Below are positions 1-43,389 of a stretch of DNA of 50,755 nt, piece after piece. Location: the IMG/VR virus record IMGVR_UViG_2908959467_000003, positions 1 through 50,755 of that record. One strand, given 5' to 3'. The stretch's first letter is position 1. Each line of letters begins with the position of its first letter. A program made the translations under genes and the position numbers. The notes beneath the pieces were generated by a model that searched no databases, was not told where the DNA came from, and saw nothing but the letters and a program-made list of their open reading frames with translations. Source of the DNA: a virus (taxonomy: Duplodnaviria > Heunggongvirae > Uroviricota > Caudoviricetes).

Positions 1-1158
1 ATGCTCACCGTTAAGCAGATTGAAGCAGCAAAGCCGAAAGAAAAACCATACCGCCTACTCGATGGTAATGGCCTGTACCTTTATGTCCCTGTATCCGGAA
101 AAAAGGTCTGGCAGCTTCGCTACAAGATTGACGGTAAGGAGAAAATCCTGACCGTCGGAAAATATCCGCTAATGACTTTGCAGGAGGCAAGGGATAAAGC
201 ATGGACCGCGAGGAAAGATATCTCGGTTGGCATCGATCCGGTAAAGGCAAAAAAGGCTTCGTCTAACAACAATTCCTTTAGTGCGATTTACAAGGAATGG
301 TACGAGCACAAGAAGCAAGTCTGGTCAGTAGGCTATGCAACTGAACTTGCAAAAATGTTTGACGACGACATTTTACCTATCATTGGCGGCCTTGAAATTC
401 ATGATATTGAGCCGATGCAACTGCTGGAAGTAATCCGCAGATTTGAAGATCGCGGTGCAATGGAGCGAGCAAATAAAGCCCGCAGAAGATGCGGCGAGGT
501 TTTCCGTTACGCTATTGTCACTGGTAGGGCTAAATATAACCCGGCACCTGACCTTGCTGACGCCATGAAGGGATACCGCAAGAAAAACTTCCCGTTTCTT
601 CCAGCAGACCAGATCCCGGCATTCAACAAAGCACTTGCAACATTTTCAGGAAGTATCGTATCGCTCATTGCGACCAAAGTTTTACGCTACACAGCCCTCA
701 GAACGAAAGAGCTTCGTTCTATGCTATGGAAGAACGTCGATTTTGAAAACAGGATTATCACCATCGACGCCAGTGTGATGAAGGGACGCAAAATTCATGT
801 GGTCCCGATGTCAGACCAGGTGGTTGAACTTCTCACTACGCTAAGCTCCATCACTAAACCAGTATCAGAATTTGTTTTTGCCGGGCGCAACGATAAGAAG
901 AAGCCAATCTGCGAGAACGCGGTGCTACTTGTGATCAAACAAATCGGCTATGAGGGTCTGGAAAGCGGTCACGGATTCAGGCATGAATTCAGCACGATTA
1001 TGAACGAGCACGAATGGCCTTCTGACGCTATTGAAGTGCAACTGGCACATGCCAACGGCGGATCTGTGCGCGGTATTTACAACCATGCTCAGTATCTCGA
1101 TAAGCGCAGAGAAATGATGCAGTGGTGGGCGGATTGGCTTGATGAAAAAACTGAGTGA
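1..1158 (+). CDS. intS: Tyrosine integrase, P4 family (385 aa), IntS-like
   Basis: N-terminal KPYRLLDGNGLYL arm-binding-like region, C-terminal catalytic region (..HGFRHEF..IYNHAQY); recalled similarity to KplE1/CPS-53 IntS. Begins at window position 1. Confidence 0.8.
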   Translation: MLTVKQIEAAKPKEKPYRLLDGNGLYLYVPVSGKKVWQLRYKIDGKEKILTVGKYPLMTLQEARDKAWTARKDISVGIDPVKAKKASSNNNSFSAIYKEWYEHKKQVWSVGYATELAKMFDDDILPIIGGLEIHDIEPMQLLEVIRRFEDRGAMERANKARRRCGEVFRYAIVTGRAKYNPAPDLADAMKGYRKKNFPFLPADQIPAFNKALATFSGSIVSLIATKVLRYTALRTKELRSMLWKNVDFENRIITIDASVMKGRKIHVVPMSDQVVELLTTLSSITKPVSEFVFAGRNDKKKPICENAVLLVIKQIGYEGLESGHGFRHEFSTIMNEHEWPSDAIEVQLAHANGGSVRGIYNHAQYLDKRREMMQWWADWLDEKTE

Positions 1159-10507: not shown

Positions 10508-11352
10508 TGCTCCGCGATTATCTTGATGGTTGTGGCAGTAAACGCCGCACCATTCGACTGAATGGTTAACGTACTGCCATTTGTGGCAAGAAAGCCGTCT
10601 TTATCCACGCTGAAGAATGTAGCTAACAGGATGTTGTCGGTTGTTGTCGCCGCATTACGACTGCTGACCAGTGTGTCAGGAACAGAGCCGGAAAAGGTTA
10701 GCTGCATTGATCTGTTGGTGGTTCCGCTGGGCCACGTCCCGACAATCGACAGCTTGAAGAACAAGGTTTTGTTCTCGTTGAACACAACCATCTTGTTGTT
10801 AACGGTGTCGAAGAATGGTGCCAACGTGCCGGATGACGGCGTGAGCGTTTTCAGCAGGCTAACAAGGTTGGTCGGCGCTGTCGGGATGGTTACAGATACG
10901 CCAGAGTAAACAACCTCTGACTTCTTGCGAGTAGTGGCATACTCCAGAGCATCGATGCGCGTTTCATGGTCTGAAACCTGCGATTCCAGCGACTGAACTC
11001 TGGTATCAAGCGACGCAATATCGCTTTCATTCTGAGCGATTCGCGTTTCATGTTCCTGAAGAGTTGATTCTGCCTGGCTGATTCGCTCCTCATGATTAAC
11101 AAGCGTTGCTTCCGCAGCAGAAATTCGCTGCTCATGGTCAGCGAGAATCACATCCTGCTCATCGTTCCTGACTTGTGCGTCATAAGCGCCCTGTCCGGCC
11201 TCGTTGGCCTTGTTAGCCACGTTACCAACATCAGTGCCCTGTGCGATAACGTAAAGCAGATACGACTGCGAGAAGATATTGCGTGGAAGAACTGATGTAT
11301 CGAGCCGCGTAGCTTGGATGATTACCGGCACATTGAGATTCGAATCCGCCAT
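10504..11352 (-). CDS. Tail needle, P22 gp26-like with extra C-terminal knob domain (282 aa)
   Basis: N-terminus [43 protein letters not shown].. matches recalled gp26; heptad coiled coil; about 100 extra C-terminal residues as in Sf6-type needles. Confidence 0.8.
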
Positions 11353-39377: not shown

Positions 39378-39604
39378 TGAGACGCTCAAGTTGGGATGCT
39401 CGCCTTGATAAGCGCATGAATATCGAGAAGCTAGAAGAACAAGGTCTTATCGCTGACAGTATGGAAGTTAGAAGGAGTCTTGTTGAACGAGTTATGAGAG
39501 GAGAAATAACTCCAGAGCAGTCCAGGGAAGAACTGAAACGGATTCAGAGAAATGCCAAGCGCAATGGACTTAAAACCAGAAACCAGGCATGGAGAGAAGG
39601 TTGA
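39374..39604 (+). CDS. Hypothetical basic protein (76 aa)
   Basis: Last sizeable gene of the early-left operon. Confidence 0.4.
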   Translation: MMRRSSWDARLDKRMNIEKLEEQGLIADSMEVRRSLVERVMRGEITPEQSREELKRIQRNAKRNGLKTRNQAWREG

Positions 39605-39637
39605 TGGCTAAATCCGCAGCAGAACGCAACTAACAAA

Positions 39638-39692
39638 CCTCGCACCGTCGAGGTTTTCTTTTATCTGAACTCGCTACGGCGAGTTTTGTTTT
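39638..39692 (+). terminator. Tandem terminator hairpins at the end of the early-left operon
   Basis: CCTCG-CACCGT-CGAGG + TTTTCTTTT, then AACTCGC-TACG-GCGAGTT + TTGTTTT. Confidence 0.5.
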
Positions 39693-39705
39693 ATGGAGAT
39701 GATAA

Positions 39706-39873
39706 ATGCACTTCCGAGTCACAGGTGAATGGAATGGAGAACCATTCAACAGAGTTATCGAAGCAGAGAACATCAACGACTGCTATGACCACTGGATGAT
39801 ATGGGCGCAGATAGCACATGCAGACGTAACCAATATTCGAATTGAAGAACTGAAAGAACACCAAGCCGCCTGA
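39706..39873 (+). CDS. Small hypothetical protein (55 aa) bracketed by terminators
   Basis: ATG with GGAGATGA RBS. Confidence 0.35.
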   Translation: MHFRVTGEWNGEPFNRVIEAENINDCYDHWMIWAQIAHADVTNIRIEELKEHQAA

Positions 39874-39888
39874 TGGCGGTTTTTTTAT
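39865..39888 (+). terminator. Rho-independent terminator
   Basis: GCCGCC-TGAT-GGCGGT followed by T7. Confidence 0.55.
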
Positions 39889-39896
39889 TACCTGAT

Positions 39897-39912
39897 TTGC
39901 AGGTTCGATTCC
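39897..39912 (+). other. 16-nt match to the T-arm region of tRNA-Arg (argW): TTGCAGGTTCGATTCC
   Basis: Sequence read directly; argW comparison is from memory. tRNA similarity stops on both sides, so not a tRNA gene. Confidence 0.55.
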
Positions 39913-39931
39913 CTATTCGGAGATAGCACTC

Positions 39932-40132
39932 ATGCAACACGAACTACAACCTGATTCACTGGTTGATTTGAAATTCATCATGGCCGATACTGGCTTCGGT
40001 AAAACCTTCATCTATGACCGGATTAAGTCCGGCGACCTGCCTAAAGCCAAAGTTATCCACGGGCGAGCAAGATGGTTATATCGTGACCATTGTGAATTCA
40101 AAAATAAGCTCTTAAGCCGCGCCAATGGGTAA
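39932..40132 (+). CDS. torI: Excisionase / recombination directionality factor, TorI/AlpA-like (66 aa)
   Basis: 66-aa winged-helix-type protein (..IMADTGFGKTFIYDRIKSGDLPKAKV..RARWLYRD..) between the two argW-like segments. Confidence 0.65.
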   Translation: MQHELQPDSLVDLKFIMADTGFGKTFIYDRIKSGDLPKAKVIHGRARWLYRDHCEFKNKLLSRANG

Positions 40133-40205
40133 AATAGCGGGTAAAATTTTTTTCACATCTAAAAAACACCATTCCAATCAATCCCCTGCCGCTTCAAGTA
40201 GATGT

Positions 40206-40220
40206 CTGCAGGGGACACCA
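40206..40220 (+). other. Putative att core: 15-nt match to the 3' terminus of argW (CTGCAGGGGACACCA)
   Basis: Exact 3'-terminal tRNA-Arg sequence including CCA; no tRNA body upstream; 160 bp upstream of the second integrase. Confidence 0.6.
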
Positions 40221-40380
40221 TGAACACTTCTCACTAAGTCCAATTAATTCCATAACTCACTGTTTTAACTGATATCATCTCCTTATACTCGTCCAGCAAA
40301 GTACCATTATTTCTAATGGAATCTATACATCTTTGCGTATAACATTGTGTATAACTGAGTTCGATCTTTTTTCTATACAC

Positions 40381-41556
40381 ATGCTGCTATCTGACATCCA
40401 AATAAAAAGAGCAAAACCGAAGGACAAACCCTATACGCTTAACGATGGTATGGGGCTATCACTCCTGATCGACACAGCGGGCAGTAAAGGCTGGCGTTTT
40501 CGCTATCGCTTTGCAGGTAAGCCTAAGATGATTTCCTTTGGCGTATATGGCGATGTGTCGTTGGCACAGGCACGTACCAAACGTGATGAAGCGCGTTCGA
40601 TGTTAGCCAAAGGGATAAACCCAAGTGAAGCCAGAAAAGCAGATAAGATTGCTTTGCAGTTCGCGCATGAGAACAGCTTTGAGTCTGTGGCCAGAGAATG
40701 GCACTCATCGAAAAAAGCCACCTGGTCAGAGGGTTATGCAAAAGAGGTTCTCAATTGTATGGAAAAGGATATTTTTCCTTTTATCGGCCAGCGCCCAATT
40801 GAGCAGATTGAACCATTAGAACTGCTAACCGTCCTGCAAAAAATAGAGAAAAGAGGTGCGCTAGAGCAAACCAGTAAGATCCGCCGCCGCTGTGGTGAAG
40901 TGCTTCGTTATGCTGTTGCCACTGGTAGAGCAAAGTATAATTTTGCACCCGATTTAGCTATCGCACTCAACAAACCTAAAACCCAACACTTCCCGTTCCT
41001 GACTGAAAGCGAGTTGCCCGAGTTCGTTAATGCTCTGGATAACTATCAGGGCAGTTTAGTTACCAAATACGCCACGCAGCTGTTGATGCTAACAGGCGTG
41101 CGAACAATTGAACTACGTGCAGCGGAATGGGCTGAGTTTGATTTAGATAATGCCTTATGGGAGATCCCCAAAGAACGGATGAAGAAACGCCGCCCCCATC
41201 TGGTTCCGTTATCAACTCAGGCGATCAATATCCTGAAAAAGCTGCAAGAAATAACAGGGAATTACAGCCTCGTTTTCCCTGGCCGAAATGACGTCAGGAA
41301 ACCAATGAGCGAAGCCAGCATCAACAAAGTGATAAAACTACTGGGTTATCACGGTCGGTTAACGGGTCACGGTTTCAGGCATACCATGAGCACCATCTTG
41401 CATGAGCATGGGTTTGAAAGTGCCTGGATTGAAATGCAGCTTGCGCATGTTGATAAGAACTCTATTCGAGGTACTTACAATCATGCGCAATATATTAAAG
41501 ATCGACAAGTAATGATGGAATGGTACGCTAGCTTATTAAATACGACCTGCTATTAA
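40381..41556 (+). CDS. Tyrosine integrase, P4 family (391 aa)
   Basis: MLLSDIQIKRAKPKDKPYTLNDGMGL.., ..RRRCGEVLRYAVATGRAKYNFAPDLA.., ..HGFRHTMST..; paralogous to the int at 1..1158. Confidence 0.85.
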   Translation: MLLSDIQIKRAKPKDKPYTLNDGMGLSLLIDTAGSKGWRFRYRFAGKPKMISFGVYGDVSLAQARTKRDEARSMLAKGINPSEARKADKIALQFAHENSFESVAREWHSSKKATWSEGYAKEVLNCMEKDIFPFIGQRPIEQIEPLELLTVLQKIEKRGALEQTSKIRRRCGEVLRYAVATGRAKYNFAPDLAIALNKPKTQHFPFLTESELPEFVNALDNYQGSLVTKYATQLLMLTGVRTIELRAAEWAEFDLDNALWEIPKERMKKRRPHLVPLSTQAINILKKLQEITGNYSLVFPGRNDVRKPMSEASINKVIKLLGYHGRLTGHGFRHTMSTILHEHGFESAWIEMQLAHVDKNSIRGTYNHAQYIKDRQVMMEWYASLLNTTCY

Positions 41557-42486
41557 ATCCAGCATGAAACAAATATGGTGAGTAATTTGATACTGTTTGT
41601 TTTTTGGCAACCCAGGGAAATGCCTTACAGTTGGTTGACTATTGTAATAATAATAGTTAAGACCAATGTTGCTGCCAAACTGGGTTGGATGTTGGGGAAC
41701 AAGATTTGTAATTTGATCTGAAACATCTAAAAATTTTGCAGTAACATTTGAACTTCCTCGTTGCGTGTTGCTTGATACAAAATGACGAATCCAAACTGTA
41801 TTCGCTTGTAAATTCTTGAACACCAAATGTGCGGCAACAGCAGAAGGTTGACCACCTCCAAGATCTAGTACCTGGCCAGTAATTGTATAATCGCCAAATC
41901 CTAAGTAATTTTGTCCCACGAATTGATGTGCGTGCGTGAAAAGTTCCGGCCCATTATAATCAGCATTTTTTGCTAACTTTCTAAAGTTATCGCTAATAAT
42001 AATTAACTTCGACAAAGGAAGAAGAGCGCACTGATTAGGAAGCATTTTATTATTTAAAACAACATGATAACTAATCAATTGATTTGTCGCCAACAACTGA
42101 ATATCAGAGTTGGATAATGATGGATTATCATATAGAAGTGCAACTCGTCTATTTAAGTTAGCATTCAACCAATTATTAATATCATTAATCGTTGTATTGG
42201 GCTGAATAAGATATCCAGAGATGATATTGTTTTTATTTGTTAATACACTTGATAAATTTTGATTTAAAGTTAAGACGTTATTGTGTGAAGAAAAATCTTC
42301 CTGATAAGGATTAAGGATAACAATTATGTCAGAATTCCAAACATTTAAACATGTTAATAAATTTCTCGTATTGACGTTAATTGGTTCTAAAATTGGTAGC
42401 AGACCATTTAGGCTAACTCCCTTCGCAACGAGGTCCCTAAGGCATAATAACTCTGTACTTCTCGCATACAAATATGGGCTATACAT
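41536..42486 (-). CDS. Cargo protein B (316 aa), unknown function; second gene of an AT-rich two-gene operon
   Basis: N/S/L-rich low-GC ORF, 21 nt after gene A; no recognised motif; 3' end overlaps the convergent int by 21 bp. Confidence 0.6.
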   Translation of the reverse strand: MYSPYLYARSTELLCLRDLVAKGVSLNGLLPILEPINVNTRNLLTCLNVWNSDIIVILNPYQEDFSSHNNVLTLNQNLSSVLTNKNNIISGYLIQPNTTINDINNWLNANLNRRVALLYDNPSLSNSDIQLLATNQLISYHVVLNNKMLPNQCALLPLSKLIIISDNFRKLAKNADYNGPELFTHAHQFVGQNYLGFGDYTITGQVLDLGGGQPSAVAAHLVFKNLQANTVWIRHFVSSNTQRGSSNVTAKFLDVSDQITNLVPQHPTQFGSNIGLNYYYYNSQPTVRHFPGLPKNKQYQITHHICFMLDLIAGRI

Positions 42487-42507
42487 AACTTACAACTCCT
42501 GAGGATA

Positions 42508-43389
42508 TCAACAAATTTTAATTTTTACATCCATCAAATTCATGATGAATTCTTTTTGCTTTCTTGATAATGGTGTTGCATAACCTAAAACACGTAAACA
42601 TGCTGGAAGAGAATAAATATAATCCAAAAAAACTTTGTCGTTACATCTTTTTTTCATAGCAGAGATAAAGTATTTATTTGCTATGTTTAATGGCATCTGC
42701 ATGAATATCTCTTTACAATATTCATAAACCAATCCATTAGGCATATTTATTTTAGTTGAAGTGTAATCTTCTATTATAGCTAAGAACTCTTCCTTTCTAA
42801 GAACTGAAAACAAGCTGTCACTTTTAATATAATCAATATTTGAATCTGCCTCCTTAATGACACTCAATTGATCTTTTTTATTCAAAACCATAACTCCCAC
42901 TCTGGGGAGATTTAAAGCACAATATTTACTTGCATACTCTGGATGTGTAACTATATACACTTTATCAAAAACATCCAAATAATCAGGGGCTTGAGTAATC
43001 AACCTTTTTGGTGAATCATACTCTGTCTTAATCTCGTAAGCTGTAGACGTACCATTAAACACCGCAACATCCACTATAGAGTTTTTAATTGGTAACTCTA
43101 TGGACGACGAACTTGTTTTTGGGCTGTGCTTACCGAATATTATTTTATTGACAAGTGCTGTCTTATAAACATATTCATTTCTATAATTCAGACGCAAAAA
43201 ATCATATAATGATGTAAATAAATCCCTTAGTGAAATCTCATGTTCATTATTATCATTGTTTGAAAACAGTGTTTCATAGCAGTAAGAATCAAAACTCCCA
43301 AATAAATCCGAAATATCCTTACCTTTTGCTAAGGATGAAAAAATGGGGCGACGGAAAAATTTAGCATATTCCTTTTTATTATGACTCAT
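42508..43389 (-). CDS. Cargo protein A (293 aa), putative PD-(D/E)xK nuclease-fold protein
   Basis: ..SIELPIKNSIVDVAVFNGTSTAYEIKTEYD.. gives the E / hydrophobic-D / E-x-K arrangement; AT-rich. Confidence 0.6.
   Translation of the reverse strand: MSHNKKEYAKFFRRPIFSSLAKGKDISDLFGSFDSYCYETLFSNNDNNEHEISLRDLFTSLYDFLRLNYRNEYVYKTALVNKIIFGKHSPKTSSSSIELPIKNSIVDVAVFNGTSTAYEIKTEYDSPKRLITQAPDYLDVFDKVYIVTHPEYASKYCALNLPRVGVMVLNKKDQLSVIKEADSNIDYIKSDSLFSVLRKEEFLAIIEDYTSTKINMPNGLVYEYCKEIFMQMPLNIANKYFISAMKKRCNDKVFLDYIYSLPACLRVLGYATPLSRKQKEFIMNLMDVKIKIC

Follow-up and report, generated by a model that had tools for sequence, protein, structure and literature searches.

Two argW-identical strings beside torI in a P22-like prophage: an attachment core at the junction with a P4-like satellite and a conserved putative control element

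The 50,755-nucleotide (nt) stretch of Caudoviricetes DNA analyzed here (IMG/VR record IMGVR_UViG_2908959467_000003; the whole stretch is hereinafter the window) carries a P22-like prophage with an intS-type integrase gene at one end and the excisionase gene torI at the other, where it is joined to a P4-like satellite (Table 1). Two strings on either side of torI, the 16-mer TTGCAGGTTCGATTCC and the 15-mer CTGCAGGGGACACCA (40206–40220), each present once in the window, are identical to parts of the Escherichia coli tRNA-Arg gene argW. We find that the downstream string belongs to the attachment (att) core at which the prophage meets the satellite, and that the upstream one is a separate, conserved element, which we propose to be a putative accessory binding site for TorI and/or the integrase IntS controlling torI.

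Alignment to the annotated tRNA-Arg of E. coli AVS0528 (GTCCTCTTAGTTAAATGGATATAACGAGCCCCTCCTAAGGGCTAATTGCAGGTTCGATTCCTGCAGGGGACACCA), the part of which spanning both strings reads ...GGGCTAATTGCAGGTTCGATTCCTGCAGGGGACACCA, bears out the original prediction that both segments match argW and that they are contiguous in the tRNA but lie about 293 bp apart here around a torI-like gene. The matches are exact and overlap by a single C in the tRNA, while here the intervening 293 bp (39913–40205) hold torI. The 16-mer runs from the end of the variable loop through the 5′ T-stem and T-loop and reaches two nt into the 3′ T-stem, and the 15-mer takes in the remaining T-stem, the 3′ strand of the acceptor and the CCA. 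When the window was simulated 300 times under a first-order Markov model, exact matches to argW on either strand had a maximum length of 9–14 nt and never reached 15; thus, chance is excluded as the origin of the two collinear, same-strand matches found here (16 and 15 nt). A hidden tRNA gene or pseudogene is likewise ruled out, as ARAGORN called no tRNA gene in the window and Rfam gave no tRNA family match in 39500–40500 even at E ≤ 10, neither program recovering a cloverleaf. However, describing the homology as "split" is misleading because K-12, Sf6 and hundreds of prophages show the same fixed arrangement: it is a standard feature of the cassette and reflects no local rearrangement.

Table 1. 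Features of the window at the prophage ends and the satellite junction
Feature	Coordinates	Strand	Basis
intS-type integrase gene, left end of the P22-like prophage	1..1158	+	98% DNA identity to annotated intS
Intrinsic terminator (stem 39863–39882 plus T-run), left mosaic boundary of the torI cassette	39863..39889	+	terminator scan
16-mer TTGCAGGTTCGATTCC	39897..39912	+	exact argW T-arm match
Family-wide core of the element, CAGGTTCGATTCC (13 nt)	39900..39912	+	conserved in 16 diverged lineages
TorI-site pentamer GTTCG within the element	39903..39907	+	sequence match
torI Shine-Dalgarno sequence GGAGA	39919..39923	+	read from the sequence; GGAG kept in relatives
torI, excisionase/recombination directionality factor (66 aa)	39932..40132	+	PDB 1Z4H match
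Position of primer attR-IHF2, left end of the 135-bp attR	40109..40128	+	one exact match within the window
Pair of GGGTAAAA direct repeats, interpreted as IntS arm-type (P) sites	40127..40146	+	only two copies in the window
AATCCCCTGC, inverted copy of core bases TGCAGGGGA	40180..40189	+	conserved in the P arm of most lineages
Putative phage-side core-type half-site (C) GTAGATGTC	40198..40206	+	deduced from an inverted repeat
CTGCAGGGGACACCAT, att core (16 nt) at which phage attR and satellite attL are joined	40206..40221	+	published core; homology breaks here
Satellite Int-proximal arm (attL side), GTGTATA-type repeats	40222..40380	+	adjoins argW directly in AVS0528
Satellite P4-type integrase gene	40381..41556	+	annotated start in Ecol_276 and AVS0528; Pfam domains

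The cassette to which both strings belong is recognizable from its two recombination genes. The integrase displays the Arm-DNA-bind_3, Phage_int_M and Phage_integrase Pfam domains of the P4-type architecture, and residues 1–66 of TorI, a winged-helix excisionase, match PDB 1Z4H, the "Tor inhibition protein" (E = 6.6e-43), and are 100% identical to E. coli copies in tblastn comparisons. Between the two genes lies the phage body, in which the minus strand encodes the late genes and the plus strand the early-left operon. IntS stands at the opposite prophage end from TorI and reads away from attL, and the core follows torI at a fixed distance, with TGCAGG... beginning 74 nt after the torI stop in all relatives. 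The order of elements is attL–intS...torI–attR; therefore, attP lies between xis and int, as it does in KplE1, HK620, Sf6 and Kapi1 (PMC2951348, PMC3509656, PMC8787464). The window starts at the intS ATG, and argW and attL lie outside it to the left; in JB2, the closest annotated genome (98% identical), argW ends 161 bp before the intS ATG and the core is present. The int-side arm, with five GTTCG-type TorI sites and TAAA arm sites, also falls to the left of window position 1 and is present in JB2 and Sf6. Among complete E. coli RefSeq genomes, none has this intS region over its full length at 99% identity or more, the best reaching 98.0%.

Compared with the argW module of KplE1 (CPS-53), HK620, Sf6 and Kapi1, the cassette shows no structural difference: it shares TorI, intS (98% at the DNA level), the same 16-nt core CTGCAGGGGACACCAT, the gene order xis–attP–int that places the two genes at opposite prophage ends, and the GGGTAAAA arm repeats after the torI stop. 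KplE1 differs in its surroundings, with an attR that runs into dsdC and a 10-kb remnant, as against the fusion to a P4-like satellite and the full-length P22-like phage body found here. The likening of this layout, integrase at one end and excisionase at the other, to the KplE1/CPS-53 IntS/TorI module is thus upheld by the match of TorI to 1Z4H and the intS identity; both this analogy and the assignment of the core are correct and already known.

The published core of KplE1, HK620 and Sf6 is the 16-mer CTGCAGGGGACACCAT (PMC2951348; PMC8787464), which adds a sixteenth base, the T at 40221, to the downstream 15-mer. The comparison with K-12 KplE1 that had been suggested as a check finds homology to window positions 39882–40221, after which K-12 runs into dsdC, and in satellite-only strains (AVS0528) argW is followed directly by the sequence of the window from 40222 onward. 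Because both homologies break exactly at this point, 40206–40221 is shown to be the phage attR joined to the satellite attL and the core of IntS strand exchange, as anticipated for the 15-mer in the original prediction. Ecol_276 carries the same tandem, and there the far end of the satellite is marked by another copy of the core directly ahead of dsdC, beyond the equivalent of the window's right end. Erwinia phage 49 and Salmonella phage g341c have an unchanged core in cassettes that are only ~72–76% identical in DNA. The order in which phage and satellite integrated is not deducible from the junction, as both orders give the same one. The torI–satellite junction is found in just 10 of 5426 genomes.

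At the core, GATGTC-N7-GACACC forms an imperfect inverted repeat around the 7 bp TGCAGGG, and relatives read TTCGATGTA / TGCAGGG / GACACC across the junction to the left of the core. We infer that TGCAGGG (40207–40213) is probably the 7-bp overlap, in which case the left half-site of attB would be argW TTCGATTCC. At the C half-site, the TTCGATGTA of the relatives is still like the argW T-loop; hence, core-type half-sites would appear to keep a T-loop-like TTCGAT. The inverted core copy AATCCCCTGC, which has a similar counterpart, AATCCCCTGA, in the int-side arm of Sf6, may be an extra integrase site.

Turning to the upstream element, the identical 16-mer lies 35 nt before the torI ATG in K-12 and Sf6 and in the same place in ~80 IMG/VR copies. 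The IMG/VR scan with a TorI alignment returned only 100% identical copies, which we used to define the mosaic boundary of the cassette, and relatives were gathered with distant queries. The torI-type loci so assembled from genome and viral collections come from Serratia, Citrobacter, Pantoea, Edwardsiella, Tatumella, Arsenophonus, Proteus, Erwinia and uncultured contigs, and conservation was assessed on 16 dereplicated lineages in which TorI is 48–85% identical. Throughout these 16 lineages a motif (CA)GGTTCGATTCC is present 27–43 nt before the excisionase ATG. The 11-mer GGTTCGATTCC has a mean pairwise identity of 0.90, with 7 of its 11 columns invariant, as compared to 0.27 in the 20 columns to its left, 0.45 in the 8 columns to its right, and 0.84, 0.92 and 0.58 at the first, second and third codon positions of torI, respectively. 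As judged from these columns, the upstream element is shown to be under purifying selection at the level of coding positions. Of the 16 nt, 13 are family-wide; the extra TTG is confined to the E. coli branch, and Serratia and Pantoea extend the tRNA match rightward instead (...ATTCCTG).

Two independent lineages carry direct tandem repeats of the motif with periods of 16 and 14 nt: the loci L134 and L135 read CAGGTTCGATTCCCGT CAGGTTCGATTCCCAT, L137 keeps this period of 16 nt but differs in its second copy, GGTTCGGTTCC, and L131 reads TGTTCGATTCCCGC GTTCGATTACC. At another locus (L016), the element is cleanly missing, with a ~24-nt gap between the terminator and the Shine-Dalgarno sequence. Inspection by eye for covariation between the element and the recombination directionality factor sites or C half-sites of the same phage revealed no clear pattern. 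Within the literature accessible to us this conservation appears to be unreported; what we add to it is that the T-arm-identical block before torI is a selectively maintained and sometimes duplicated accessory element.

We propose, with a probability of roughly 55%, that the two strings are two different parts of one KplE1/HK620/Sf6-type torI–attP–intS module in an argW-integrated P22-like prophage, the downstream string providing the core and the upstream one a putative accessory TorI and/or IntS binding site that controls torI. The upstream element would thereby be a discrete DNA site of ~13 nt for the cassette's own proteins, and its identity to the tRNA would reflect a protein recognition shared with attB rather than half of a broken att site. 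It follows the last of three intrinsic terminators and precedes the torI ribosome-binding site, a position suited to the control of torI. The known TorI sites are 8-mers built on GTTCG, GATCG or GTCCG, mutation of which to CAAGC abolishes the repression of intS by TorI (PMC2951348 section 8). Re-mapped on the JB2 attL via the published coordinates, the five 8-mers are CAGTTCGC, CAGTCCGC, CAGTTCGT, TGGTTCGC and CAGATCGT, and AGGTTCGA in the element matches TorI site I4 at 6/8 positions; binding of TorI through this GTTCG pentamer would result in autoregulation of torI. The 3′ part of the element is identical to the tRNA-side attB flank TTCGATTCC, which adjoins the presumed overlap TGCAGGG and which IntS would have to bind as its left core-type half-site; IntS, being constitutive in the lysogen, might also, or instead, bind this attB-half-like sequence and repress torI.

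The sites I1–I5 on the KplE1 attL (PMC2951348) offer a close comparison. Like them, the element has the pentamer GTTCG after (C)AG/GG, forms direct-repeat arrays in some lineages and stands beside a gene start that it could regulate, as I4 and I5 repress PintS. Unlike them, it is usually single, is found across the core from them, has an invariant ATT(C/T)C after the pentamer in place of their C/T, and is a putative site only. In a more elaborate version, which we regard as doubtful, the element would be an attB-half mimic serving as an operator: the core-binding domains of IntS would occupy the element and its arm-binding domain the GGGTAAAA sites at the torI 3′ end, so that the bridge would loop out and silence the 200-bp gene, while TorI could also bind GTTCG and autoregulate. 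Such looping, if true, would give reciprocal control of integrase and excisionase and would explain why a tRNA-side attB half is kept 300 bp from the real core.

Several points weigh against an operator. Both the binder and its effect are putative, and a single GTTCG pentamer is weak evidence: the mapped TorI sites work cooperatively as arrays and have C or T after them where the element has ATTCC. Erwinia phage 49 and the MELRED/MRELRD-type lineages keep the arm sites and the core without the element, and Erwinia phage 49 also keeps GTTCG arrays without it. Since many functional-looking relatives thus lack the element, any role that it has would be accessory. Furthermore, single-nucleotide polymorphisms fall within it among E. 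coli prophage copies (L044, L071, L073, L082, L092), it is dispensable for excision in vitro (see below), and the core-type half-sites and 7-bp overlap invoked for IntS come from an inverted repeat, not from published cleavage data. Inspection by eye for covariation between the element and the recombination directionality factor sites or C half-sites of the same phage revealed no clear pattern.

The stakes of a torI control site follow from the finding that torI expression alone triggers excision (PMC2951348, Discussion), due to which a cis-element controlling torI would bear on the stability of the lysogen. It would be relevant to Sf6, HK620, Kapi1, argW-integrated Stx phages and many cryptic prophages, as the element stands directly before the excisionase gene of a widespread enterobacterial integration cassette with an uncharacterized promoter (PtorI). 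While the att core, gene layout and tandem occupancy of argW are textbook for the family, the upstream element is a useful by-product of their analysis.

An alternative function, conceivable yet unlikely in our estimation, is that the region of the 16-mer is the Sf6/HK620 promoter "pI", supplying −35/−10 elements or an activator box and driving torI and, in the phage form, intS. The Sf6 record NC_005344 indeed annotates [quoted passage not shown] at the equivalent of window positions 39889–39916, a location just upstream of the Shine-Dalgarno sequence would fit a promoter, and the Arsenophonus copy (L023) has a lambda-pI-like box, TTGCGTGTAATTG, there. However, a sigma-70 consensus scan of 39600–40450 found no promoter-like site, as against 2.0 expected by chance, and a sigma-70 promoter in the 16-mer region was rejected as −35/−10 elements at a spacing of 16–18 nt find no consensus support. 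The candidate hexamers (TTACCT / CCCTAT) are poor, the conserved block GGTTCGATTCC is unlike either hexamer, there is no TTGC-N6-TTGC activator box, and PtorI is itself called "non-characterized" (PMC2951348). Promoter and operator roles are compatible, and a promoter that depends on an activator could still operate here. With the lambda pI/xis–int region the locus shares a regulatory element, here putative, at the start of the excisionase gene and an excisionase insulated by upstream terminators, so that it would be expressed mainly from antiterminated early transcripts. It differs from lambda in having neither a CII box (TTGC-N6-TTGC) nor recognizable sigma-70 hexamers, in that attP lies between xis and int, which are separated in the prophage, and in that intS has its own autoregulated promoter.

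Three terminator-like hairpins with T-runs are found on the plus strand within 250 bp upstream of torI (39635–39656, 39667–39686 and 39863–39882), where they flank a 55-codon open reading frame (39706–39873); terminator-like sites in the region number 5 as compared to 0.5 expected. This arrangement suggests that only antiterminated transcripts may extend into torI. KplE1 lysogeny is reported (Menouni 2013) to be maintained by Rho-dependent termination ahead of torI. On the minus strand, opposite the start of torI, Rfam gives a sub-threshold match to STnc130, a Salmonella small RNA candidate, at 39854–39982 (26 bits versus a gathering threshold of 55; E = 0.16).

A further reading, which we consider improbable, regards the 16-mer as a passive, functionless relic, either of a longer tRNA-derived attP or of an earlier tandem integration later cut down by a deletion that reached from the middle att site nearly to torI. 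As an origin this has several points in its favor. The argW match is extended differently by lineage, as TTGCAGG... in E. coli and ...ATTCCTG in Serratia and Pantoea, with a union of 18 nt, and the T-loop-like TTCGAT beside the core in relatives suggests that homology in the ancestral attP probably extended as far as the T-loop; these lineage patterns would fit a forerunner of the cassette that was richer in argW-derived sequence. The window's own tandem array is of the kind able to leave such a scar, and a deletion in a tandem array that left a T-arm scar before the downstream torI may have given rise to the element. The left edge of the cassette is, moreover, a mosaic junction. The 80 E. coli-type IMG/VR copies share sequence only rightward of the T-run (~39882–39889) and split farther left into at least two unrelated contexts; therefore, the 16-mer lies 10–17 nt inside this edge. 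To the left of the cassette, a 5′ fragment of a P22-type xis (..SLTLDEAC.FLKIS) remains in K-12 (L001, ~1425–1470) and g341c (L006, ~1939–1990), which indicates that the torI–attP–intS cassette replaced a P22-type xis–int module by recombination at its left boundary; the window has a small open reading frame and a terminator at the position of this fragment instead. A search for phages in which the T-arm and the 3′ end are contiguous in attP matched prophage records with the host argW or phage-encoded tRNAs. Against passivity stand the 0.90 identity of the 11-mer, where a neutral sequence would be expected to resemble the flanks (0.27–0.45) or third codon positions (0.58), and the tandem duplications, which arose twice. 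A relic origin is compatible with a present function, and only the lack of function is disfavored: the suggestion that the 16-mer is a remnant of an earlier integration is thus plausible for how it arose, fits poorly if the remnant is taken as passive, and is incomplete in that origin leaves maintenance unexplained.

The 16-mer was also suggested to be an arm element of the phage attP, and an accessory role in the integration or excision intasome might be entertained, as it lies on the P-arm side, in most lineages at a constant spacing from torI and the core (~306 bp), and as its identity to the attB left flank means that IntS could bind it. We nevertheless deem such a role very improbable. 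A 135-bp attR made with primer attR-IHF2 supports excision in vitro (PMC3509656 section 3.6), and this fragment, beginning at the equivalent of 40109, is sufficient; the 16-mer lies 197 bp to its left. IntS arm-type sites share TAAA, and the five mapped TorI sites are on the int side of the core (PMC2951348 section 8). Immediately 3′ of the torI stop, GGGTAAAA occurs at 40127 and 40139 and nowhere else in the window, and the paired GGGTAAA is invariant across 28 lineages; the 16-mer itself has neither GGGTAAA nor TAAA. It is also 300 bp from the core, far past the mapped arm, and missing in many relatives with intact cores and arms. The absence of the motif and the published minimal attR together lead us to reject an arm-type site: the working attR does not include the upstream string, which is dispensable for excision in vitro.

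Finally, an RNA-level mimic of the tRNA T-arm in the torI leader, such as a signal for processing or modification enzymes, is highly improbable, for although the copies of the Edwardsiella type fold into a perfect hairpin of 6 bp, GACAGG-TTCGATTC-CCTGTC, and that of Serratia could pair CAGG with CCTG, the version of the window, K-12 and Sf6 is unable to form the T-stem (its 3′ side being CCCTA), folding z-scores of −0.87 to +0.34 in five lineages yield no conserved or significant common structure, and Rfam gives no match, making a DNA-level protein site the better reading.

The satellite to the right of the core encodes a P4-type integrase 46% identical to IntS (BLASTP), an sce7725/sce7726 pair, ogr/Delta, a DUF927 primase and an Icd-like gene, assigned by synteny, with the open reading frames of the window matching the annotated Ecol_276 element in size and order. 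With its integrase by a tRNA att site, variable hotspot, ogr/Delta, alpha-type DUF927 primase and Icd-like gene, it resembles the P4-like satellites integrated at tRNA 3′ ends in tandem with helper-type prophages, and it uses the same argW 3′ end as the phage. It differs from the phage in its argW identity block, 20 nt (ATTCCTGCAGGGGACACCAT) versus 16, and in its arms, which have GTGTATA-type repeats and not GGGTAAA. The right-end repeat of the satellite in Ecol_276 (L008, 11380–11476) contains this 20-nt match, which reaches 4 nt beyond the phage core; therefore, the satellite attL in the tandem has a left half-site derived from the phage rather than from the tRNA. Just inside the same right end (11232–11336) are ~20 GGGCT repeats. 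The sce7725 and sce7726 family genes (41536–43389, minus strand) lie beside the satellite integrase, at the position of the P4-like defense hotspot; the second, sce7726-type gene matches the PADLOC model PDLC02989 "cll" (E = 1e-18), and the first has no match.

Phage-plus-satellite tandems recur at this att site. In the L134 locus (IMG/VR contig 2917942753_000004, ~1770–2000), a diverged lineage whose TorI shares 77% identity with the Edwardsiella-type query, a satellite-type arm and integrase start resembling those of the window directly adjoin the core of the phage attR. In L122, L028/L143 and L167, GTTCG/GTCCG pairs with I1–I2-like spacing occupy the first ~45 nt past the attR core and look like int-side arm remnants of an earlier neighboring element.

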